A stretch of 64,000 nt of DNA from an uncultured Solirubrobacterales bacterium (lineage in GTDB: Bacteria; Actinomycetota; Thermoleophilia; Solirubrobacterales; 70-9): assembly GCA_963718755.1 (NCBI GenBank), contig OY970376.1:527673-591672 (forward strand), written 5' to 3'. A model generated the notes under the pieces. That model did not search any database and was not told where the DNA came from. It saw nothing but the letters and a program-made list of their open reading frames with translations. A program made the translations under genes and the position numbers. Shown here one piece after another: positions 8,937-58,009 of the stretch (its first letter is position 1; every line of letters begins with the position of its first letter).

Positions 8937-10265
8937 TCACGCAACCAACCTCACTTCGAAGCTGGGGACGACGAGTGCTCCGGCCCCGTCGAGAAGAGCA
9001 AAGATGCGGCTGACGTAGGCCTGGGTCTCGGGGTAATCAGGGATGCAGTCGCAGGCTTCTACGGGGGCGGGGCCGGCGTTGTAGGCGGCCAGGGCGAGGG
9101 ATGGGTCGCCGAACTGGCGCAGCAGGTCGGACATCAGGTGTGCCTGGGCGTCGATCGCTTCAACTGGGTCGTAGGGGTCGCGGAGGCCATAGGCCGCGGC
9201 TGTCGTCGGCATAAATTGGGCAATGCCCTGCGCCCCCGCCGGGGAGCCTGCGTTGGGATCGAAGTTCGACTCCGCCATCAGCTGGCCGGCAAGCAGAGCC
9301 GCTGAGACGTTCCAGCGGGTCGCCGCGCGCAAGATTGTCGCCCGGAACCGAGCCGGGACGAAGGATGGGAGGCCGCCGGCACCCGCGAGCGAGCCGTCTC
9401 CCCCGCTGCCGACACTCACGATCCCGTTTCCGGCGGTCGAGCACGGCGCTGGACCGGCTGTGAAGCCGTAATGCCAGGCCTCCCACGAGTAGCGCTGGAC
9501 GAAGCCGAAGCGCGATGCGTTCTCAGCCAGCCAGCCGTACGCCGTTTCCGGCCCGAGGTCGAGCTCGGTCGCGCAGCGGTGCAGGGACTTGCCCGGCGGC
9601 GCGACCCAGGTCGGGTCCGGGTGAGCGGCAAAGAGCGCCGCCTGTTCGGCGTCGGAGCGGAAGCCCGAGTTGACGACCAGGCTCAGCCCGGCGTGCGATG
9701 CGGCCGCGGCCATCTGGTCGAAGGCAGCGGCCACGTCGGGGCGCATCCCCTCCCCCGACCTGTAGGCCAGCGGGCCGCTGTAGCCGCCGCCACTCGCCAT
9801 TGATGGCGTCGAGGTGCCGCCAGCGGCGGGCGCAGCCGCTTCGGCCACTGCAGATGCCTCGACCCGGTGCTTATCGACGCTGCCAACGACCAGAGCCTTG
9901 ACCCGCACCGGGGCGAACGAAATTGCGTCCGGAAAGGAGATCCACAGGCGGGCCGCAGCCACTTCGTTCGCCTCTGCCACCTCTTCTGCCGCCCCTCGCG
10001 CCCGCAGCAGATACACGGCCTTCTCCATATGAACCGGGTTTGGCAGCCCGTTCGGCAGGGTCGGCGGGGCCAACAGCCGCGGCAGGTCGTCGCGCATCGA
10101 GCGCGCCGCCGATATCGCCGCCAGGTCCGCCGCTCGCTGCGCCCGCCCCTTGCCGGTGACCGCCCCCGCGATCGCCACGAGAGCAAGTGCAGCGAGGATC
10201 AACGCGAAGGCGCCGCCGAGCGCCAAGATCAACGCCTGCCCATCCTCCCTGCGATTCGCGTCCAT
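8937..10265 (-). CDS. Tri-domain envelope protein: TadG-like N-terminal anchor + VanY/M15 D,D-carboxypeptidase + SLT lytic transglycosylase
   Basis: N-terminus GQALILALGGAFALILAALALVAI...RAQRAADLAAISAA (Tad_N-like). Middle SGFRSDAEQ...PGKSLHRCATELD...EAWHYG (VanY H-x-D and xWH motifs). C-terminus AESNFDPNA...GIAQFMP...AAYNAG (SLT). Confidence 0.75.
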   Translation of the reverse strand: MDANRREDGQALILALGGAFALILAALALVAIAGAVTGKGRAQRAADLAAISAARSMRDDLPRLLAPPTLPNGLPNPVHMEKAVYLLRARGAAEEVAEANEVAAARLWISFPDAISFAPVRVKALVVGSVDKHRVEASAVAEAAAPAAGGTSTPSMASGGGYSGPLAYRSGEGMRPDVAAAFDQMAAAASHAGLSLVVNSGFRSDAEQAALFAAHPDPTWVAPPGKSLHRCATELDLGPETAYGWLAENASRFGFVQRYSWEAWHYGFTAGPAPCSTAGNGIVSVGSGGDGSLAGAGGLPSFVPARFRATILRAATRWNVSAALLAGQLMAESNFDPNAGSPAGAQGIAQFMPTTAAAYGLRDPYDPVEAIDAQAHLMSDLLRQFGDPSLALAAYNAGPAPVEACDCIPDYPETQAYVSRIFALLDGAGALVVPSFEVRLVA

Positions 10266-10335
10266 GCGGCGACCCTGCCGAGACAGGACGCGCGGGTGGT
10301 GCGCTCAGTCGAAAATCTGTGTGACGGTTTCCAGG
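10266..10335 (-). promoter_or_regulatory. Conserved leader/promoter block, copy A (upstream of the tri-domain hydrolase gene)
   Basis: About 70 percent ungapped identity over ~67 nt with 12241-12310. Both copies abut the start codon of a Tad-like gene and begin GCGGCGACCCT on the plus strand. Confidence 0.6.
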
Positions 10336-10339
10336 CGCG

Positions 10340-10780
10340 TTACGCGCTGAGATCGACGATCTCGATCAGATGCTCGAGACCAAGGAGATCCTTGGAGTTC
10401 AGCGTGTACAAGGGCAGATCGTGAGCAAGAGCGGTAGCGGCAATCAGGAGATCGACGACGCGAGAGCCTCGCGGCTTGCGACCGATTCGTTCGACTGCCG
10501 CGGAAACGCGGCCATACGCTTGAGCACAAATGAAGTCGAAGGGAAGCGCTTCGATGCCGGCTTCGACCCGCCGCAGATGTCGGCGGCGACGAGCCTTCTC
10601 GAACTCCTTGCGAGCTACATGCAGCCCGCCGGCCAGCTCGGCCATCGTCAATGCGGAGATCGCCAACTCCAGGGGTAGTTGAGGAAGTTCAGTCTCCTTC
10701 AAGCGCACCGCGACAGACGTGTCGATCAGTGCGCGCCGCCCATGCGTACCAGTCTTTCGGGCTGGGATCGGCGACGGCAT
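10340..10780 (-). CDS. vapC: PIN-domain toxin VapC (second copy)
   Basis: ALIDTSVAV...LTMAEL...VVDLLIAATALAHDLPLYTLN PIN motifs. The start is uncertain: the first in-frame ATG near the domain is 10780, and the track ORF extends to 10885. Confidence 0.7.
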   Translation of the reverse strand: MPSPIPARKTGTHGRRALIDTSVAVRLKETELPQLPLELAISALTMAELAGGLHVARKEFEKARRRRHLRRVEAGIEALPFDFICAQAYGRVSAAVERIGRKPRGSRVVDLLIAATALAHDLPLYTLNSKDLLGLEHLIEIVDLSA

Positions 10781-11894: not shown

Positions 11895-12240
11895 CGCCCG
11901 GCTCCAGCGCGGCGCCAGCGCCGACCGTCAGCCGTGGCAGCGCTGGAAGCAGTCTCGGTATGACGACTCGAACCGAGACACCATCGCCGTCGCTCACCTG
12001 CGCCCCATCCCGCATCGACAGCGGCAGCGCCCGCCGTGCCGCGACCGCGGCGTCACCCCCGACCAGGGCCGCCCGTGCTCCCGCCCGGGCCGCGACCGCG
12101 GCCGACCACAATGCGTGCCCGGCAAGAACGATCTGCGCCGCCACCAGGACCGCCAGCAGCAGGAACGGGATCACGGCAACCACCTCGACCGACGCGGTCC
12201 CGTCCTCCCTGCGAACGCTGCTGGCGGCCTGGCGCGACAC
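11887..12240 (-). CDS. TadE/TadF-like pseudopilin
   Basis: N-terminus EDG-TASVE-VVAVIPFLLLAVLVAAQIVL, i.e. a G/xxxxE motif plus a hydrophobic helix. 117 aa, GTG start at 12240. Confidence 0.7.
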   Translation of the reverse strand: MSRQAASSVRREDGTASVEVVAVIPFLLLAVLVAAQIVLAGHALWSAAVAARAGARAALVGGDAAVAARRALPLSMRDGAQVSDGDGVSVRVVIPRLLPALPRLTVGAGAALEPGDG

Positions 12241-12310
12241 GCGGCGACCCTCCCAGGCAGAAACGCGCGAGTGGCGCGCTCAAACGAAAAGTTCCGTGAC
12301 GGCTCCGCGC
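12241..12310 (-). promoter_or_regulatory. Conserved leader/promoter block, copy B (upstream of the first TadE-like gene)
   Basis: Paralogous to 10266-10335 (see that feature). Confidence 0.6.
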
Positions 12311-12328
12311 CGTCTTAGCGGCGAGTCC

Positions 12329-20146: not shown

Positions 20147-20186
20147 ATATTCCCAAGCTCGTCGGATCTCAACCCCGGAGCAACGC

Positions 20187-20295
20187 GCGGGTGTGCGGGG
20201 TGTCCCCCTGCGGAAACATTGGAGCCCTCCCCCGGTAAGAACCCGTAAGGCCGCTCCTATGCGGGTTTACGCAGGGGGACACCCCGCACACCCGC
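20187..20295. repeat. Family-2 nested palindromic element, copy X1
   Basis: Perfect 26-bp inverted repeat (20187-20212 / 20270-20295) enclosing an inner GAACCCG/CGGGTT stem. It fills most of the phoU-ppx spacer and is related to 27145-27242. Confidence 0.85.
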
Positions 20296-20994
20296 CTACT
20301 GATTCGGGTGAGACGCGTCCTCGAACTCGCGAAACAACCCCGTGACGACGAAGGCAACCTGCTCGCCGATGTCAACCGCGTTGTCGGCAATCCGCTCGAT
20401 CGCGCGCGCCGACAAGAGCATCGTCATTGCCCACTCGCGACTGTCGAGATCGTCACCGATCTCCAGCGCCAGACGGAAGCAATCGCGGTTGAGGTTGTCG
20501 ACGACGTCGTCTTGCCGGACCAGGTCGCGCGCCATCTCGACGTTGCGCTCCTCGAAGGCGCGCTTCGACTGGCTGATCAGGGTGCGGGTCTGACGACCCA
20601 TGGTCAGGATCAGCTTCACCATCTCTGGGTCGGCCGGTGGCTCGTTGCCGGTCAGCGGGATCAGCTTGCAGATGTTCACGCACTGGTCGCCCATCCGCTC
20701 GACGTTCTTCAGCACATGGAGCAGGGCCGAGATCAAGCGCAGGTCGGTTGCAACGGGTGACTGCGTGGCGAGCAACGTGATCAGCGCCTGGTGCACCTCC
20801 AGGTAGCGGCCGTCGATGCGGTCGTCGTCGGCGATTACCAGTTGCGCCAGCTCGACGTCCTGCTGCTCGACGGCTTCCAGGGTCCGCCCAAGCGCGCCTG
20901 TGACCAAGTCGAGGCCGCCGAGGGCGCTTGCCTCGAGCTTTTCCAGCTCCTCCTGGTATTGCACCCTGGTCTGCGCGGGCATCCGCGCCGTCAC
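20296..20994 (-). CDS. phoU: Phosphate signalling complex protein PhoU
   Basis: Two PhoU repeats ([26 protein letters not shown]). 4-nt overlap with pstB. Confidence 0.9.
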
Positions 20995-34625: not shown

Positions 34626-34729
34626 ACCCCGAACCTGCAGGCCCCAAGCGCGCATGTGGTGCGCACTTCGTGCCGCCTCCGTTCCAAGAAAGAGACGGCA
34701 CAAAGACATCTATCTGATGGAGGCGGCCG

Positions 34730-35075
34730 GAATCGAACCGGCGTCTCTGGCCGTAGCGCGAAGGTTTCTACAGGTTTAGCCGGCGCTTGATTCTCGTCTC
34801 CCGGGGTCCGCGCCGGCGGGCACTGCGGGAGACAAAGCCCTCTGAAATTTCCCCTTGCGGACGGGGCGATCCGCCTGGGTAAGCCCGCAATTGAAGCCGG
34901 AACCCCCCTCCGCGGGCGGGAGAGGGCCGACTCTCACTCACTTAGATCTAACTAAGCAGCGAGGGCGAACTCATGGTCCGCACGTATTGGTTGGTGCCGG
35001 TGTTTAACGAGGCCTCCGGCAACCTCGACCTGCAACCGTTCGCACGGATCGACCAGATCGAAGCCTGTCGCCCCC
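34730..35075 (-). ncRNA. ssrA: tmRNA (transfer-messenger RNA)
   Basis: 5' GGGGGCGACAGGCTTCGA..., 3' ...GCCGGTTCGATTCCGGCCGCCTCCA. The acceptor stem GGGGGCG/CGCCTCC has G3-U. Internal tag frame ...GCG GAC CAT GAG TTC GCC CTC GCT GCT TAG (ADHEFALAA*) at 34952-34981. CCA is not encoded. smpB lies 3 kb away. Confidence 0.85.
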
Positions 35076-35107: not shown

Positions 35108-36484
35108 ATGCCGGAGCGAGAATTCGACGCAATCGTGATCGGCGCCGGCGCACCGGGTGAGGTCTGCGCGGGCCGGCTCGCCGACGGAGGGCTCTCGGTC
35201 GCAATAGTCGAGAGCCACCTGGTTGGCGGCGAATGCTCCTACTACGCCTGCATGCCATCGAAGGCACTGCTGCGGCCGGGCGAGCTGCTGGCGGAGGCGC
35301 GCCGGGTGCCCGGCGTCAGCGCCGCGGTGACCGGCAACCTCGACTCGCAAGCGGTGCTCGACCGCCGCGACGAGGTGATCCACGACCTCGACGACTCCGG
35401 CCAGCTGCCGTGGCTGGAGGAGCGCGGGATCGAGCTCTTCCGCGGCGAGGGCCGGCTGGACGGCGAGCGACGGGTGGTCGTTGGCGAGGCGAGGTTGACC
35501 GCAGGCAAAGCCATCGTCGTCGCCACTGGCAGCGGCGCCGCAATGCCTCCGATCGAGGGGCTCAACGCGGTCAAAACCTGGAACAACCGCGATGCGACCA
35601 CCGCAAAGCAAGTGCCCGAGAGCATGGTCGTACTCGGCGGCGGCCCCGTCGGATCGGAGCTGGCCCAGGCCTGGTCGACGCTGGGGACCTCGGTCACCTT
35701 GATCGAGGGCGAGGGCAGGCTGCTGCCGCGCGAGGAGCCCTTCGCCGGCGAGCAGGTAGCAGCGTCGCTACACGACTCCTACGGAATCGACGTCCGCACC
35801 GGCCTGCTTGCCGAGCGTGTTGCTGCCAGCGACACCGGAATCGTGGTCGAGCTGAACGACGGCAGCCGGGCTGAAGGGGCTGAGCTGCTGATGGCGATCG
35901 GTCGCGTTCCCCGCACCAAGGAGATTGGCCTGGAGTCGGCCGGGGTCGAGCCCGGCGAGCCCGGCTTCTTGGAGACCGACGCGCAACTGCGGGTCGGCGG
36001 CCGCGATTGGCTCTACGCAGTCGGCGACGTCAACGGCCGCGCCCTCTTCACCCACATGGGCAAGTACCAGGCCTGGGTCGCCGCCGAGAACCTGCTCGGC
36101 CGCGAGACCGAGGCGGTGGCCGAAGGCATCGGCTCACCCCGCGTCACCTTCACCGACCCCCAGGTCGCCGCCGCCGGCAAAACCCTCGCCCAAGCCGAAG
36201 CGGATGGCATCGACGCCCGCGCCGTCGACGTCCCCACCGACGGCACCGCCGGCGCCAGCTTCTACGGCAAGGGCACGGGTGGCACGTCCCGCCTCGTCGT
36301 CGACCAGGCCAACGAGACGATCGTCGGCGCCACCTTCACCGGCTTCGAGACCGCCGACTTCCTCCACGCGGCCACCGTCGCAATCGTCGGAGAAGTACCT
36401 CTCAAACAGCTACGCCACGCCGTGGCCGCCTATCCAACCCGCTCCGAGATCTGGCTCAAGCTGCTGGAGGCTGCCGGCCTGTAA
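35108..36484 (+). CDS. FAD-dependent pyridine nucleotide-disulfide oxidoreductase (class I, dihydrolipoamide dehydrogenase/mercuric reductase-like)
   Basis: DAIVIGAGAPGEVCA Rossmann motif, redox-active GGECSYYACMPSK, and a second NAD(P) fold VVLGGGPVGSE. ATG at 35108 avoids overlap with ssrA. Confidence 0.85.
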   Translation: MPEREFDAIVIGAGAPGEVCAGRLADGGLSVAIVESHLVGGECSYYACMPSKALLRPGELLAEARRVPGVSAAVTGNLDSQAVLDRRDEVIHDLDDSGQLPWLEERGIELFRGEGRLDGERRVVVGEARLTAGKAIVVATGSGAAMPPIEGLNAVKTWNNRDATTAKQVPESMVVLGGGPVGSELAQAWSTLGTSVTLIEGEGRLLPREEPFAGEQVAASLHDSYGIDVRTGLLAERVAASDTGIVVELNDGSRAEGAELLMAIGRVPRTKEIGLESAGVEPGEPGFLETDAQLRVGGRDWLYAVGDVNGRALFTHMGKYQAWVAAENLLGRETEAVAEGIGSPRVTFTDPQVAAAGKTLAQAEADGIDARAVDVPTDGTAGASFYGKGTGGTSRLVVDQANETIVGATFTGFETADFLHAATVAIVGEVPLKQLRHAVAAYPTRSEIWLKLLEAAGL

Positions 36485-36485
36485 G

Positions 36486-36593
36486 CCCCTCCCGGTAGGG
36501 GTGGAACGTCTTGTACTTTTTCGTCGAGGCCCCTGGGCGATAGCCCACAAGCAACCCACCGAAAAAGTTAAGTGGAACCCCTGCCGGGAGGGG
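36486..36593 (+). repeat. Family-1 structured intergenic element, copy 1
   Basis: 108-nt nested hairpin filling the spacer between two convergent stop codons. The conserved core is shared with 55037-55150. Confidence 0.85.
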
Positions 36594-38195
36594 CTACACC
36601 CGTGAACGCCTCTTGAGGTCTTCAGCAAACTCCCTTGGCAGGCCAGGAATCTCATCCAGCTCGTCGATCGAGCTGAAGCGGCCGACGCGCTCGCGGTGGG
36701 CAAGCAGGCGGGTCGCCTGGGTGACGGACAGCCCTTGGGCGCGTAGCTGCTCGAAGCTGACGTTGTTGAGTTCGATCGTCTCCCCGACTTGGGCCGCGGG
36801 CGGCGATGGTTGCGGGGGCGACGGCGGGCCTGGTTGCGGCTCGGGCTGCGGCGGAGCTGGTGGAGGACCCGGCTGAGGCTCTGGGGCTGGTGGCGGCGGT
36901 TGGGGTACTGGGGGCTGAGGCGTGGGTGACGGCGAGGGTGGCGGGCTGGGCGGCTGCGGACCAGGGGGCTGTGGGGCGGCCTGCGGAGGCAGCGGCTGAG
37001 GGGTCAACGAGGCCTCGCCTCCGCCCTGCACCGCCCCGAGCACGGCCTGCTCCGCTTCGGCGGCACGGCGCTCGGCCTCGCGCGCGCGCTCCTCTGCCTG
37101 GGCGACGCTCTCCTCGATCTCGCGCAGGCGCTGCTGGCGCTCTGCCTCTTCCGCTTTCAGCTTCGAGAGGCGCTCGGCCTCGGCAGCGCGTCGTTCGGCC
37201 GCCTTGGTCCGCTCCTCGATCTGGCGCAGGCGCTCCTGCGCTTCGGAGAGCGAGCGCTCCTGCGCTTCGCGCTCCTGCTGCAGGCGCTGCTCGGCCGTCT
37301 GCAGGTCTGGGGCCGCCGGCGACGGCGACGGCGGCACCGCAGCCATGCTCTGCGTCGTCTGGCCCGCCGCGGCCTGCGCCTGGCGCGCCTCGGCCTCGCG
37401 CTGGAGCCGCTCCGCCTCGGCGATGCGCCGATCGGCCTCAGCCCGAATTCGCTCCTCCTCGCGCTGAATTTCTGCCACCTTGTCCTGCACCCGCTGTTCG
37501 GCCGTTGCCGGGTCGTAGCCGGCTGGCAGAGGCGGCGGAGGAGGGACGCTCGGCGGCGCGGGAGGCTGCATTGGCGGCGGTGCCGGGGGCGGCGGAACCG
37601 CAGCGGTGGGCGCCGGCGGGACTGGTGGCGGCGGAACCGGCGGCGGCATCACCACAGGCGGCACCGGCTGGGTCTGGGCCGGTGGCTGGGGCGGCTGGGT
37701 AGTAGCCGAGCTCTCCTGCTCGAACAGCGCCCGCTCTTGAGCGGCCCGCGCGGCGGCGAGGTCGCGCTCGGCCTTGACCGCTTCCTTCTTCGCGCGGCGG
37801 CCGGAACCGCCGGCCTTGGTCGGCTTGTGGCGTCGCTCAGCCCGCTTCTGGGCGCGTTCCTGGCGGCGCCGCTTCGCCTCTTCGGTGCGCCGTTTGCGGT
37901 GTTCGCTGCGCGCTGCGCGCTGCTGCGCGCGCGCCTGCTTGCGTTTCTCCTTGGCGTTCAAAGGTTTGCCACCGGGCGGCGGCGGGGGTGGTGGTGGGGC
38001 GCCTGAGCTTGCGACGCCGGCGGGCTGAGACGCCGGGGACGCGCCGGGGGCCGGGGGCGACTTGCCGGCCCCTGCCTTCTTGCTCTGGTCCTTGCTGCGC
38101 CGCTGGACGATGCTGATCACCAGCAGGAGGAGAAGGATCGCCACCACCAGCCCGGCGACGAAGTACTGGACGTTGTCGCTGACGAAATCAGCCAT
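36594..38195 (-). CDS. Membrane-anchored Pro-rich / coiled-coil protein with C-terminal helix-hairpin-helix (ComEA-like) DNA-binding motif
   Basis: N-terminal TM (YFVAGLVVAILLLLLVISIV) then a Lys/Arg-rich segment, PPPxP tracts and ERxAAEAER heptad-like repeats. C-terminal FEQLRAQGLSVTQATRLLAHRERVGRFSSIDELDEIPGL. Confidence 0.7.
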   Translation of the reverse strand: MADFVSDNVQYFVAGLVVAILLLLLVISIVQRRSKDQSKKAGAGKSPPAPGASPASQPAGVASSGAPPPPPPPPGGKPLNAKEKRKQARAQQRAARSEHRKRRTEEAKRRRQERAQKRAERRHKPTKAGGSGRRAKKEAVKAERDLAAARAAQERALFEQESSATTQPPQPPAQTQPVPPVVMPPPVPPPPVPPAPTAAVPPPPAPPPMQPPAPPSVPPPPPLPAGYDPATAEQRVQDKVAEIQREEERIRAEADRRIAEAERLQREAEARQAQAAAGQTTQSMAAVPPSPSPAAPDLQTAEQRLQQEREAQERSLSEAQERLRQIEERTKAAERRAAEAERLSKLKAEEAERQQRLREIEESVAQAEERAREAERRAAEAEQAVLGAVQGGGEASLTPQPLPPQAAPQPPGPQPPSPPPSPSPTPQPPVPQPPPPAPEPQPGPPPAPPQPEPQPGPPSPPQPSPPAAQVGETIELNNVSFEQLRAQGLSVTQATRLLAHRERVGRFSSIDELDEIPGLPREFAEDLKRRSRV

Positions 38196-53488: not shown

Positions 53489-54608
53489 CTAGCCGGCCGA
53501 GGAGGCCGCGGTCTTGTTCAGGTAGTCGCGGATGAAGTCGTCGATGTCGCCGTCGAGCACGCGCTGCGCGTCCCCCACCTCGTAGCCGGTGCGGTGATCC
53601 TTGACCCGCTGGTCGGGGTGGAGGAAGTAGCTGCGGATCTGCGAGCCCCAGGCAACTTCCTTGACCTCACCCCGCTCCTGCGCCAGCGTCTCCGCGCGTT
53701 TGCGCTCCTCCAGCTCGATCAGCTTCGAGCGCAGCAGCTGCATCGCAACCGCCTTGTTCTGGGTCTGCGAACGCTCGTTCTGGCACTGCACGACGACCCC
53801 GGTCGGCAGGTGGGTGATGCGCACCGCCGAGTCGGTCTTGTTGACGTGCTGGCCTCCGGCGCCAGAGGCCCGGTACGTGTCGACGCGCAGATCGGCGTCG
53901 TCGATCTCGACCTCCACCCCCTCGTCGACGAGCGGCCCGACGTCGACCTGGGCGAAGCTGGTGTGGCGCCGCGCGGACGAGTCGAAGGGGGAGATCCGCA
54001 CCAGCCGATGCACGCCGCGCTCAGCGGCGAAGAGGCCGTAGGCGTTCTCGCCGTGGGCGAGGAAGGTCGCCGACTTGAGGCCGGCCTCCTCCCCCGGCGA
54101 GGCCTCCTTCATCTCGACCTCGAAGCCGCGGGCCTCCGCCCAGCGCAGGTACATCCGCAGCAGGATCTCCGCCCAGTCCTGGGAGTCGGTGCCGCCGGCC
54201 CCGGCGTGGACGGTGACCACGGCATCGCCGGCATCGTACTCGCCGCTGAACAGGCGCGCCTCTTCGAGCTCGGCAAGCCGCCCTTCGACCGCTACCAGCT
54301 GGGTCGCCAGCTCGGCGGCCATCTCCTCGTCCTCGCCCGCCATCTCGGCCAGCTCGCCAACGTCCTCAGCCTCCGCCTCGAGCTCCTCGAAGGTCTTCAG
54401 CTTGCGCTGAGCGCGGGCGTGCGCGGCCGAGATCCGAGCCGCGGACTCCTGGTCGTCCCAGAATCCGGGCCGTCCCATCTCCTCCTCCAGCCGCTCTGCT
54501 TCCCGCTGCAGTGAGGCGGGGTCAAAGGTAGTCCGCGAGCAGCTTCAACTGCTCGCGGATCTCGGCGAGCCGCGCCGGTACCGATTCGGTCGAGGCGACA
54601 TCGGCCAT
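53489..54608 (-). CDS. prfB: Peptide chain release factor 2, requires programmed +1 frameshift
   Basis: Frame 0 runs from ATG 54608 for 28 codons to CTT (54527-54525), then in-frame TGA (54524-54522). The +1 frame from GAC at 54523 continues DPASLQREAERLEEEMGRPGFWDD... to 53489. SPF and GGQ (SGAGGQHVNKTDSA) motifs are present. Confidence 0.9.
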
Positions 54609-54617
54609 GGGCGCAGA

Positions 54618-55022
54618 CTACTCGGCGGCGACGCCGTGGTCGAAGCCGCCTGCGTGCAGGGCCTCGGCCCGATCCTCGAAAGGCCGCCAGCTGCGCACCC
54701 GGTGGTCGTGCAGCTCGAAGAGCCAGGCCATGGCGTCCTCGCCCGCGGCGGAGCCGTCCTCGTCCCAATGCCACACCCGCCGGATCAGGGCAACGGCGGA
54801 CCCACCACCGGATTCGGTCCCGTCCTCGTAGAGATGCTCCAACTCGATCGTCTGCTGGACGCCACCCGGCGGGCGCGTAGCCCACAACCGCGCCGCCTCC
54901 CGCCCCTTCCGCAAGCCCCTCATCGAATGAAGCTCAACCCCAGGATCAAGGACGCGGACAAACGCATCGAGGTCCCGCTCGTTGAACGCCCGGATGAACT
55001 CTCGAACAGGGTCGCGGGTCAC
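54618..55022 (-). CDS. SnoaL-like / NTF2-fold protein
   Basis: REFIRAFNERDLDAFVRVLDPGVE N-terminus typical of SnoaL-like domains. 134 aa. Confidence 0.6.
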   Translation of the reverse strand: MTRDPVREFIRAFNERDLDAFVRVLDPGVELHSMRGLRKGREAARLWATRPPGGVQQTIELEHLYEDGTESGGGSAVALIRRVWHWDEDGSAAGEDAMAWLFELHDHRVRSWRPFEDRAEALHAGGFDHGVAAE

Positions 55023-55036
55023 AGGGGCGCCAGCTT

Positions 55037-55150
55037 AGAGGCCGTCGCGGTAGGGGTGAAACGTCTTGTACTTTTTGGCCACCGCGATTCGCGGAAGACC
55101 GAAGGGCGCAACACCCAAAAAGTTAAGTGGAACCCCTACCGCGACGGCCT
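55037..55150 (+). repeat. Family-1 structured intergenic element, copy 2
   Basis: 114-nt nested hairpin between the secA stop (55163) and the downstream gene start (55022). Same core as 36486-36593, with a different 13-bp outer stem. Confidence 0.85.
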
Positions 55151-55162
55151 CTCGGACGGGTC

Positions 55163-58009
55163 TCAAGCCCCATGACACTTCTTGAACTTTTTCCCGCTGC
55201 CGCACCAGCACGGATCATTCCTGCCGATTTCTTTCTCGCGCTCGTCCTTAACCACGGTCTCGACCACCTCCGGCGCCGGAGCACCGTTGCCGCCGCCCCC
55301 GGGCCTGGCGGTGCCTTCGGTGACACTGACGCCGCCCCCGGCGGCGACCTCTTGCAACGCTGAGGGCTGCGCGTCGGGCGTGCCGCCGGAGTAATCGAGC
55401 GCCGTCGGGGCGCCACCGTTGCCGCCGAAAGCGCCATCGAGCTGGGACGGATCGACTTCGATTTCGGCGTTGAAGACCAGTTTGCTGAATTCCTCCCAGA
55501 TCGAGTGCATCAACTCCTCGAACATGGAAAAGCCTTCGTTTTTGTAGGCGACCAGCGGGTCGATCTGTGCGAAGCCACGCAGGTGGATGCCCTCGCGCAG
55601 GTAATCCATGTCGTAGAGGTGCTCGCGCCAGCGGCTGTCGATGACCTGGAGCAGGATCGAGCGCTCCAGGTAGCGCATCAGCTCCTCGCCCAGCTTCTGC
55701 TCGCGATCGTCGTAAGCGCTCATCGCGTCTTCGTCGAGGGAGTCCTTGAGCTTTTCGCGGTCGACCATCTCCGGCGCCATCGAGCCGACCTCGGTGCCCA
55801 CCGGCCAGATCTGCCGCAGCTGCTGCTCCATGCCGAGCATGTCCCACTCGTCGAGGTCGTCGCCGGGCGTGTACTCGTCGACGAAGCGCTCGATGACCCC
55901 CTCGAGCTCGTCGCGGGCGATGTCCGACATGTCGCGGCCTTCGAGGATCTCGCGGCGGTATTTGTAGACGACGCGACGCTGCTCGTTCATCACGTCGTCG
56001 TACTCGAGCACGCGTTTGCGGATCAGGAAGTTCTGTTCCTCGACCTTCTTCTGCGCACCCTCGACCGTTTTGGACAGCATTTTCGCCTCGAGTGGCATCT
56101 CCCCGCCGTCCTCGTCGACGGGTCCAAGCCGGTCGAGAATTTTGAAGATCCGGTCGCCGGCAAAGAGGCGGATCACGTCGTCTTCGGCGGAGAGGAAGAA
56201 GCGCGTCTCGCCAGGGTCTCCCTGTCGACCCGAACGACCCCGCAGCTGGTTGTCGATGCGCCGCGATTCGTGGCGCTCGGTGCCGCAGATGTAGAGGCCG
56301 CCGAGCTCACACACTTCCTCGGCCTCGGCCTTGCACTGCGGCGCCAGCTCAGCGATCTTCGCCTCCAGTGCCTCCTCGTAGCCCTCGTCGTCCGGGTTCA
56401 GGCTCTGCTTCTTCAGCTCTTTGTGGGCCAGGTGCTCGGAGTCTCCACCAAGCTTGATGTCGACGCCACGCCCAGCCATGTTGGTCGCGATCATCACCGC
56501 GCCCTTGCGACCGGCTTCGGCGATCCGCTCGCCCTCTCGTTCGGCGTGCTCTGGCTTGGCGTTCAGCACCGCGTGCTCGACCCCGTGCCGTTTGAGCTCG
56601 CCGGAGATCATCTCCGAGACCTCGACCGAGACGGTGCCGACAAGGATCGGCTGGCCCTTCTCGTGGCGGGCCATGATCTCCTCGAGAACCGCCTTCCACT
56701 TGCCGTCTTTCGTTTTGAAGATCTGGTCGTTTTGGTCGGCGCGAACCATCGGTTGGTTGGTCGGGACCTCGACCACCGGCACCTTGTAGATCTTCATGAA
56801 CTCGGTGGCCTCGGTCAGGGCCGTGCCGGTCATGCCGGAAAGCTTGTCGTAGAGGCGGAAGTAGTTCTGCAGGGTGATCGTCGCCAGGGTCTGGTTCTCC
56901 TCGCCGATCGGTACCCCCTCCTTCGCCTCGACCGCCTGGTGCAGACCCTCTGACCAACGCCGCCCCTCGAGGATGCGGCCGGTGAACTCGTCGATGATCA
57001 TCACCTGGCCGTCGACCACGGCGTAGTCCTTGTCCTTCTTGTAGAGCGACTCGGCCTTGAGCGCCTGACTCAGGTGGTTGACAAGCGTGCCGTGCTCGCT
57101 CAGATAGAGGTTGTCGACGCCGAGGAACTCCTCGGCGCGCTTTACGCCGCGCTCGGTTGGGGAGACCGTCTTGTGTTTCTCGTCATATTCGTAGTCGTAC
57201 TCGGCCTCGGAGGTGTCTTTCGATTCGCCCAGGGATTTCAGCCGGTCTTTGGCCGGGACCGCGTCCATCTGACGTGCCAGGCGGGCGAACTGGTAGTAGA
57301 TCTGGGCAGCCTGTTCGGGTGCGCCGGAGATGATCAGCGGCGTTCGCGCCTCGTCGATCAGGATGTTGTCGACCTCGTCGACGATCGCGAAGTGGTGGCC
57401 GCGCTGGACGCAGTGCTCGAGCGATTCGGACATGTTGTCGCGCAGATAGTCGAAGCCGAACTCGGAGTTGGTGCCGTAGACGATGTCGCAGGCGTATTTG
57501 ACCTGGCGGGCGGCGTGATCGTCGGAGTCCTGGATTGAGGCAACGCTGACGCCGAGGGCGTCGTAGACCGGCTTCATCCATTCCGCGTCGCGGCGCGCCA
57601 AGTAGTCGTTGACGGTGACGACGTGGACGCTGTCGCCGGCCAGCGTGTTGAGGAAGGCTGCCAGGGTCGCGGTCAGCGTCTTGCCCTCGCCGGTCTTCAT
57701 CTCGGCGATCGCCCCGTCGTGCAGGACCATGCCGCCGACCAGCTGCACGTCGAAGTGGCGCTGGCCGAGGCTGCGCCGCGCCGCCTCGCGGGTCAGTGCA
57801 AAGGCCTCGGGCAGGAGGTCGTCGAGCGACTCCCCCCCGCGGGCGCGCTCACGCAGCGAATCTGCCTCCGGACGCAGCTCCTCGTCGCCGAGCAGCTCCA
57901 TCTCGGGCTCGATCCTGTTGATCGTCGCGGCGCGCTTCTCATACGCCTTGAACTTGCGACCCTCTCCCACGCGCAGGGCGCGCGTGACCATGTCCCTGGC
58001 ATTCGCCAT
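55163..58009 (-). CDS. secA: Preprotein translocase ATPase SecA
   Basis: DEAD-like motor motifs (MKTGEGKTL, VDEVDNILIDEARTPLIISG) and C-terminal zinc motif CWCGSGKKFKKCHG. Confidence 0.97.
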   Translation of the reverse strand: MANARDMVTRALRVGEGRKFKAYEKRAATINRIEPEMELLGDEELRPEADSLRERARGGESLDDLLPEAFALTREAARRSLGQRHFDVQLVGGMVLHDGAIAEMKTGEGKTLTATLAAFLNTLAGDSVHVVTVNDYLARRDAEWMKPVYDALGVSVASIQDSDDHAARQVKYACDIVYGTNSEFGFDYLRDNMSESLEHCVQRGHHFAIVDEVDNILIDEARTPLIISGAPEQAAQIYYQFARLARQMDAVPAKDRLKSLGESKDTSEAEYDYEYDEKHKTVSPTERGVKRAEEFLGVDNLYLSEHGTLVNHLSQALKAESLYKKDKDYAVVDGQVMIIDEFTGRILEGRRWSEGLHQAVEAKEGVPIGEENQTLATITLQNYFRLYDKLSGMTGTALTEATEFMKIYKVPVVEVPTNQPMVRADQNDQIFKTKDGKWKAVLEEIMARHEKGQPILVGTVSVEVSEMISGELKRHGVEHAVLNAKPEHAEREGERIAEAGRKGAVMIATNMAGRGVDIKLGGDSEHLAHKELKKQSLNPDDEGYEEALEAKIAELAPQCKAEAEEVCELGGLYICGTERHESRRIDNQLRGRSGRQGDPGETRFFLSAEDDVIRLFAGDRIFKILDRLGPVDEDGGEMPLEAKMLSKTVEGAQKKVEEQNFLIRKRVLEYDDVMNEQRRVVYKYRREILEGRDMSDIARDELEGVIERFVDEYTPGDDLDEWDMLGMEQQLRQIWPVGTEVGSMAPEMVDREKLKDSLDEDAMSAYDDREQKLGEELMRYLERSILLQVIDSRWREHLYDMDYLREGIHLRGFAQIDPLVAYKNEGFSMFEELMHSIWEEFSKLVFNAEIEVDPSQLDGAFGGNGGAPTALDYSGGTPDAQPSALQEVAAGGGVSVTEGTARPGGGGNGAPAPEVVETVVKDEREKEIGRNDPCWCGSGKKFKKCHGA

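Follow-up and report, generated by a model that had tools for sequence, protein, structure and literature searches.

What kind of element is the long hairpin that lies between secA and the gene downstream of it in this Solirubrobacterales genome? The hairpin was singled out in a 64-kb stretch of DNA (the window) from its letters alone, as the second of two copies of a structured element, and it was thought to be either the closing helix of an RNA or a mobile core that had landed in an older terminator hairpin. The sequence given for it in that original prediction is confirmed, and its coordinates were right within 2 nt, the exact limits (55037-55152, + strand) including one extra A-T pair per stem end relative to the earlier 55037-55150.

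Copy 2 is a 116-nt hairpin that consists, in order, of a 21-bp outer stem (P1), an asymmetric conserved middle, a 9-bp A/T-rich inner stem, and a 36-nt variable tip (Table 1). On the 5′ strand of P1 the inner 7 nt are conserved, and the outer 14 nt vary among copies with their complementarity kept. The invariant columns of the 5′ middle segment are partly set by the pattern with which the family was searched. The 3′ middle segment and the bases next to it form a same-strand repeat of the 5′-arm word of the family, GTGGAAC, which reads GTGAAAC in the 5′ arm of copy 2. The last two pairs of the inner stem covary among copies. Folded as RNA, the + strand reaches -73.9 kcal/mol (z = -8.7 against shuffled sequence) and the - strand -71.1 kcal/mol (z = -7.0, likewise against shuffled sequence), and the DNA fold reaches -39.9 (z = -6.7 against shuffled sequence).

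Table 1. Coordinates in the window of the segments of copy 2, of the genes on either side of it, and of copy 1.
Feature	Position	Strand	Sequence or remark
Copy 2, P1 outer stem, 5′ strand	55037-55057	+	AGAGGCCGTCGCGGTAGGGGT = AGAGGCCGTCGCGG + TAGGGGT
Copy 2, conserved 5′ middle segment	55058-55069	+	GAAACGTCTTGT; family consensus GGAACGTCTTGT
Copy 2, A/T-rich inner stem, 5′ strand	55070-55078	+	ACTTTTTGG
Copy 2, variable tip (36 nt)	55079-55114	+	Unrelated to the tip of the orthologous copy in locus L045
Copy 2, inner stem, 3′ strand	55115-55123	+	CCAAAAAGT; pairs with ACTTTTTGG
Copy 2, conserved 3′ middle segment	55124-55131	+	TAAGTGGA
Copy 2, P1 outer stem, 3′ strand	55132-55152	+	ACCCCTACCGCGACGGCCTCT = ACCCCTA + CCGCGACGGCCTCT; pairs with AGAGGCCGTCGCGGTAGGGGT
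secA	55163-58009	-	Context gene, outside the element
SnoaL-like gene	54618-55022	-	GTG start 14 nt from the opposite stem base of copy 2
Copy 1	36484-36595	+	Same family as copy 2; between convergent genes

The secA stop codon (55163-55165, - strand) lies 10 nt off the stem base of copy 2, and the SnoaL-like gene on the other side is followed by prfB. An exact-protein lookup of the SnoaL-like protein returned no record. The prfB gene (release factor 2; 53489-54607, - strand) contains the classical programmed +1 frameshift site CTT TGA C at about 54519-54525; this site is downstream of the ATG at 54607, and the gene therefore exceeds the listed 329-aa ORF. The spacer at 55153-55162 together with the first four arm bases (GACCCGTCCG followed by AGAG, - strand) resembles the coding start of the SnoaL-like gene (GACCCTGTTCGAGAG, 54999-55013). 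The same likeness is found in L045, and in L125 and L126 that sequence stands directly 3′ of the secA stop. Judging from these sequences, it may be left over from the rearrangement by which the element came to its place; the spacer that precedes copy 2 (GACCCGTCCGAGAG) is like the SnoaL start over 14 nt, and this likeness does not generalize to other copies.

Copies 1 and 2 belong to one family, as had been proposed. With up to 3 mismatches allowed, the 19-nt core occurs just twice in the window (0.00 expected), and a covariance model run over the 64-kb window with filters off finds the two copies and no third. The two differ by three C-G/G-C stem flips. Their settings are also as first described, copy 1 standing between convergent genes, where both stop codons overlap its stem base (TAA at 36482-36484 and CTA at 36594-36596), and copy 2 lying antisense to the secA operon. 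A kinship with a second set of elements in the window, called family 2, had been suspected on the basis of a loose resemblance. One of these is a hairpin at 20174-20308 with 44-nt arms that are 84% complementary; the others, at 10263-10342 and 12238-12317, are 80-nt direct repeats that are 70% alike. The kinship did not hold up, since the family-2 hairpin scores 15 bits over 20185-20299 (E = 0.055) and has no core in common with family 1 when aligned.

Beyond the window, the family was sought in one genome per species with a pattern of two 10-11-nt core words 36-66 nt apart. This pattern matched at least 119 loci, and the matches listed come from Solirubrobacterales, Thermoleophilia, or related Actinomycetota soil MAGs, save for three loci: one chance Bacteroidota match and two loci of one MAG labeled Chloroflexota. 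The latter (L024 and L064, JBLMYD01) are two contigs with typical copies, and L024 is the empty-site counterpart of the Solirubrobacterales locus L004; both contigs are probably mis-binned Solirubrobacterales DNA. Among the matches listed, up to at least 6 copies were sampled per chromosome (2.5-3 Mb chromosomes). A covariance model (R1) made from an alignment of 116 copies (A2) recovered 13 further copies from 774 kb of flanking DNA. These copies, for which the exact pattern was not required, run from close to consensus (>110 bits) down to decayed (49-65 bits). The density of the family is estimated at about one copy per 30-60 kb, and tens of copies per genome are estimated because 13 were found in the 774 kb of flanks and 2 in the 64 kb of the window. 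The family exists and is largely confined to Solirubrobacterales.

No earlier record of the family was found in the sources searched. Rfam holds no family that matches either copy, at the gathering threshold or at E = 10, and a plant microRNA that matched by chance, at 18.9 bits with a threshold of 137 bits, was the lone match. A scan of viral contigs and a BLAST search of plasmids gave no match to the family, and literature searches on the element sequence and on repeats of Solirubrobacterales or Thermoleophilia found no description of it. Among the sequencing runs, which were represented as contigs, none holds the genome of the window (best word share 0.15).

The 116 aligned copies show which parts of the hairpin are under constraint. 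The stem comprises 34 pairs, and 97.8% of its cells are paired, compared with at most 58% when the partners are slid by one to three columns. Double-change cells number 371 vs. 82 ± 7 in shuffles; double changes occur in 16 of the 20 outer-stem pairs, and many are C-G to G-C flips. Conservation peaks in the middle of each arm (GGTAGGGGTGGAACGTCTTGTACTTTTT and AAAAAGTTAAGTGGAACCCCTACC), drops outward through the arm consensus AGGGCCnATCCCGG to copy-specific ends, where the outermost 5-10 bp are specific to each copy, and is at its minimum in the tip. Mean pairwise identity is 0.96 in the core, a value partly inflated because 21 of its ~50 bases are fixed by the search pattern, 0.70 in the arms, and 0.63 in the tip. 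The tips, compared across copies, have no common fold. Taken together, the compensatory changes and the conserved middle indicate that the pairing of the stem is selected, that the middle is constrained in sequence, and that the tip is free. Judging by the consensus common to them, the arms are homologous among copies. Thus, of the proposal that selection acts on the closing helix of an RNA, the selection on pairing stands, but this selection is not specific to RNA. The words TAGGGGT and ACCCCTA, first taken for imperfect terminal repeats, belong to the interior of a longer stem, in which conservation is lowest at the outer end.

Comparison with related genomes reveals that the hairpin comes and goes as a whole. 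Copy 1 is filled in L005 and empty in L003 (~85% flank identity), where the two stop codons are 3 nt apart with no hairpin between them; there, CTGTAGCGCTCAGACCC stands in place of CTGTA[AGCCCC...GGGGCT]ACACCC in the window, and a 6-nt palindrome, AGCGCT, lies between the stop codons. For copy 2, seven secA relatives were fetched via secA protein identity, blind to the element. The site is empty in five of the seven (L120, L121, L122, L125, and L126) and filled in two (L123 and L124). In L120, L121, and L122 the secA TAG is followed after ~10 nt by the SnoaL GTG (CTAGCGCGCC in L120 and L122), and in L125 and L126 secA and the SnoaL-like gene overlap. Six pattern-derived secA loci are also filled (L045, L014, L049, L073, L089, and L055), always in the same orientation, and a soil contig has the empty secA form. 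Other sites offer further pairs of filled and empty loci (L002/L011 vs. L046, L004 vs. L024, and L007 vs. L030).

The original prediction had named, as proof of insertion, an empty site behind secA with nothing but the outer hairpin. Empty sites do exist there, but no outer hairpin is left in them, and none is present at the empty sites of copy 1 or of the other copies. At every empty site the outer arms are lacking along with the core; they thus belong to the unit, and these sites have no older terminator hairpin. The whole hairpin including its outer arms is therefore shown to be what is gained or lost, and the empty sites are clean. In a tree of secA, filled and empty loci are interleaved, the nearest neighbor of the window being an empty locus (L120), and several independent events are thus needed: at least 3 losses for an old copy, or otherwise a larger number of gains. 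Repeated deletion by itself can account for which loci have the copy at the secA site. Mobility, which the original prediction had put forward, is not refuted, since related genomes do have empty sites.

The rates at which the parts of the element diverge also differ. Orthologous copies whose flanks are 0.9 identical have arms and tip in common; at a flank identity of ~0.8, arms and tip are at background similarity, but the core is still 96-100% identical. The window and L045 have the same arms (identity 0.97) but unrelated tips (0.56), and between L001 and L029 the tip is kept (0.89) and the arms differ (0.73). Tip similarity is 0.69 within a genome vs. 0.645 between genomes (p = 1e-7), and the tips at orthologous sites (0.64-0.66) are no more alike than the background of random pairs. 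The independent change of arms and tips and the likeness within genomes fit an exchange through the identical cores, or replacement by the genome’s own lineage of copies. Among the 2-6 copies sampled per genome, no near-identical pair, which would have signaled recent transposition, was seen at different sites of one genome.

Several copies record stages of decay. At L053:3050-3144, a 95-nt copy lacks the 5′ half of the A/T-rich stem and the whole tip (junction …CGTCTTGTAC / CGAAAAAGTTAAG…) and is a natural deletion derivative, and L027 holds a half copy. Two orthologous divergent copies, at L102:6686-6810 (+) and L004:5118-5253 (-), stand upstream of an ispE-like gene; in both, the inner loop GGAACG/GTGGA has changed to the complementary GCGCG/CGCGC and closed into a helix, with the remaining hairpin kept. 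The pairing that is kept in old orthologous copies suggests that selection acts on each copy in place, which fits a function for the host as well as a selfish one.

A search for a mobilizing partner covered both the insertion sites and the neighboring genes. Direct repeats that could mark a target-site duplication, 8-12 nt long in the flanks or 2-5 nt long at any set distance beyond the stem, were no commoner than in permuted pairs, and target-site duplication was absent from the filled and empty pairs. Nor do the arms resemble the flanks of their own copy more closely than those of other copies. Paired copies enclose ordinary genes, for a rhomboid protease and an HTH protein, and in one case a gene for an IS1380 transposase. 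The last case is at L031:3925-5947, where two inverted copies bracket an IS1380-family transposase gene (Pfam DDE_Tnp_1_4, E = 2.5e-75). This is the only transposase near a copy, and it was rejected as the mover; the association is coincidental, since the transposase element has ends of its own in the form of unrelated inverted repeats. At L032:2419-3257, two inverted copies bracket a 142-aa gene for a protein with GRP (AT-hook-like) repeats and a C-terminal winged helix. This gene occurs in no other locus and was likewise set aside as a partner. Within ~1 Mb of element-bearing loci, a RAYT-like motif had no match, and in a search for a full-length parent element with the same ends, covering ~1 Mb of element-bearing 8-kb blocks, no solitary arm adjoining a gene was found.

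Dispersed palindromic repeats are well known in other phyla, and the family introduces no new principle; the question is which of the described systems it resembles. MITEs such as Correia/NEMIS in Neisseria and ERIC in enterobacteria are small, non-coding, dispersed long hairpins of strain-variable presence, which often lie in transcribed intergenic DNA and have conserved termini and a target-site duplication (TA for Correia). The secA-type repeat is also a small, non-coding, dispersed long hairpin, often in transcribed intergenic DNA and present or absent between relatives. It differs from a MITE of a DDE transposon in that its termini are the most variable part and in that no target-site duplication of 2-12 nt is detectable beside it. 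Integron attC sites, including the Vibrio cholerae repeats, are imperfect hairpins of 60-140 nt that follow stop codons, are recognized by structure, and have a variable tip; they stand in a single orientation in a cassette array beside the integrase, with the word GTTRRRY at the very end. Here, too, a hairpin with a variable tip and unpaired stem bases follows stop codons, and GTTAAGT in the 3′ arm fits GTTRRRY. However, this word is internal, and the copies are scattered in both orientations among housekeeping genes (secA, hemC-type). The MIRUs of Mycobacterium are direct tandem units read in the direction of the operon and are not palindromes. They and the secA-type repeat are both found between cistrons in actinobacteria, and the ends of both touch neighboring stop and start codons, but the secA-type repeat is palindromic.

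By analogy, the closest described system is the REPIN. REPINs have conserved inverted arms, a variable spacer, frequent compensatory changes, and a predicted hairpin in ssDNA or mRNA; they excise as a whole doublet and are linked to the RAYT transposase (PMC3116915). Each arm of a REPIN is a REP, with a GTAG word ahead of a short imperfect palindrome of its own, and recognition of the REP depends on the GTAG word and on stem irregularities (PMC8266576). As with the REPIN/RAYT systems of Pseudomonas and enterobacteria, the secA-type repeat is an extragenic, non-coding hairpin of ~100 nt, dispersed in many copies per genome and absent as a whole unit from empty sites. It also has two conserved inverted arms around a less conserved spacer, with compensatory changes, and it carries GTAG in the 5′ arm and CTAC in the 3′ arm. 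It differs in that an arm is not itself a palindrome preceded by GTAG: the word is inside the long stem, and the arm GGGGTGGAACGTCTTGTACTTTTT has no internal palindrome and pairs with the other arm only. Furthermore, its most conserved part is the asymmetric middle with the same-strand GTGGAAC repeat, and its hosts are an actinobacterial order. RAYTs are Y1 HUH transposases whose genes typically lie between such repeats of the same genome; within the ~1 Mb of element-bearing loci no RAYT-like motif was found. A full-text literature search for REPIN, RAYT, and Actinobacteria together returned no paper.

On balance, the hairpin beside secA is probably a non-autonomous, REPIN-like palindromic repeat of ~116 nt, whose core would be a putative protein recognition site and which is gained and lost as a whole unit. 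The invariant middle (GGTAGGGGTGGAACGTCTTGTACTTTTT / AAAAAGTTAAGTGGAACCCCTACC) would be recognized by a trans-acting protein that copies or excises the element. This predicted protein would probably be encoded once per genome, as in REP/REPIN-RAYT systems, and would probably act on a folded single strand, which would explain both why the outer stem keeps its pairing rather than its sequence and why target-site duplications are absent. Exchange between copies through their identical cores would give rise to swapped tips, and copies would persist mainly in the few bases between genes. Once transcribed, the folded element would rejoin the flanking stop and start codons, and this may be why insertions are tolerated. 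The most likely effect on the host would be that of a stable hairpin at the 3′ end, protecting or pausing the mRNA and giving no efficient terminator.

It is possible, albeit doubtful, that the hairpin is instead the substrate of an undescribed structure-specific system of Actinomycetota, run by a single-copy host enzyme that is neither a RAYT nor a DDE transposase. On a folded single strand, such an enzyme would recognize the asymmetric inner loop and the two GTGGAAC words that this loop has on the same strand, and would move the whole hairpin, preferably into the few bases at stop codons and without target-site duplication; the host would keep the copies there as 3′-end hairpins.

As for position, 102 of the 116 copies have a gene that reads toward them and stops no more than 40 nt from the stem base. 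With a median stop-to-stem distance of -1 nt, the stop codon usually overlaps the first pairs, and genes reading away start at a median of 13-26 nt from the element. In E. coli, REP elements within ~15 nt of a stop codon reportedly stall terminating ribosomes, and by analogy ribosome stalling could occur at the stop-proximal copies here. In the frame of the element, the flanking genes of 108 copies are (-,-) in 43, convergent in 39, (+,+) in 20, and divergent in 6.

Most copies are thus placed so as to be transcribed as the 3′ ends of genes, and together with the strong covariation this would suit a functional structured RNA, either a cis-acting 3′-UTR element or a small RNA of the + strand, in which the conserved internal loop would be a site of RNA-protein contact and the closing helix would be selected for its pairing. 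Two features favor the + strand in particular, namely pair 25-121, where U-G is common (21 copies) and C-A is rare (2), and two invariant G-U pairs of the middle that exist on the + strand only. This explanation is nevertheless unlikely. With pair 25-121 excluded, G-U and A-C mismatches are about equal (31 each), and the 43 antisense, 20 sense, and 39 convergent copies amount to a mixed orientation; since the middle is asymmetric, sense and antisense transcripts would show different loops, and the - version would be transcribed at more sites than the + version. Copy 2, antisense to the secA operon, has no promoter-like site, terminator-like site, or T-run after the stem on either strand. Rfam is blank even at E = 10, as noted above. 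Three soil metatranscriptomes yielded zero reads of copy 1, a weak result because copies have only ~30-nt stretches of the short conserved core in common, through which alone reads would match. The tmRNA gene of the same window (34715-35075, - strand; Rfam RF00023, 152 bits) served as the positive control and yielded hundreds of reads, related tmRNAs being well represented in all three data sets. The data indicate no single transcribed strand, and with mixed orientations and no promoter, U-tract, Rfam family, or RNA reads, the RNA-specific part of the original prediction is not supported.

A function that does not depend on the direction of transcription would be expected of a DNA site of the host, at which a chromosomal protein would be bound by the duplex or by an extruded hairpin, with gene conversion both spreading the copies and keeping them homogeneous. 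In enterobacteria, BIME/REP elements bind gyrase or IHF. By analogy, such a role could account for the persistence of core sequence and pairing in old orthologous copies and for the conserved A/T-rich stem, which is conspicuous against a genome of ~70% G+C. The + strand of the element is on the locally C-rich strand (negative GC skew) at 71 of 116 loci (p = 0.02), which hints at an orientation with respect to replication; the direction of replication may lie behind this bias, which is weak and confounded with gene direction. On the other hand, a duplex site should not select for pairing in a variable 20-bp stem, and the copies are dispensable between close relatives. To our knowledge, there is no candidate protein. 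A host DNA site is accordingly improbable as well.

An ordinary intrinsic terminator, bidirectional and similar at many genes, is very hard to defend. A G+C-rich 20-bp stem does stand right after stop codons, often between convergent genes, but it is followed by no U run, as an intrinsic terminator would be, the T-run being absent from both strands. In 63 of the 108 copies with genes called on both sides, the flanking genes are co-directional, with the next start at the short median distance given above and no room for a promoter, which together with the missing U-tract argues against efficient termination. Moreover, a ~50-nt invariant core cannot arise independently at many sites. Least credible of all is the idea that terminator hairpins specific to each locus were there first and that a short mobile core (TAGGGGT...ACCCCTA) inserted into their loops: the outermost arms are copy-specific yet always paired, and the AGCGCT palindrome marks the empty site of copy 1, but the empty sites of copy 2 in five genomes and those of other copies hold 0-10 nt between genes and no hairpin, and the arms are homologous through AGGGCCnATCCCGG, with no excess similarity to their own flanks.

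Solirubrobacterales are abundant soil bacteria that are known almost only from metagenomes, and for them the REPIN-like family is a natural data set of more than 100 copies, combining an invariant core of protein-binding size, a stem in which pairing alone is kept, a free tip, and empty sites. Its core could serve as a marker for strain typing and for the binning of soil MAGs. The hairpins also call for care in annotation, since gene calls can be shifted by their overlap with stop and start codons. The family also offers a route to the protein that mobilizes or binds it, in a phylum with no REP/RAYT-type systems on record.
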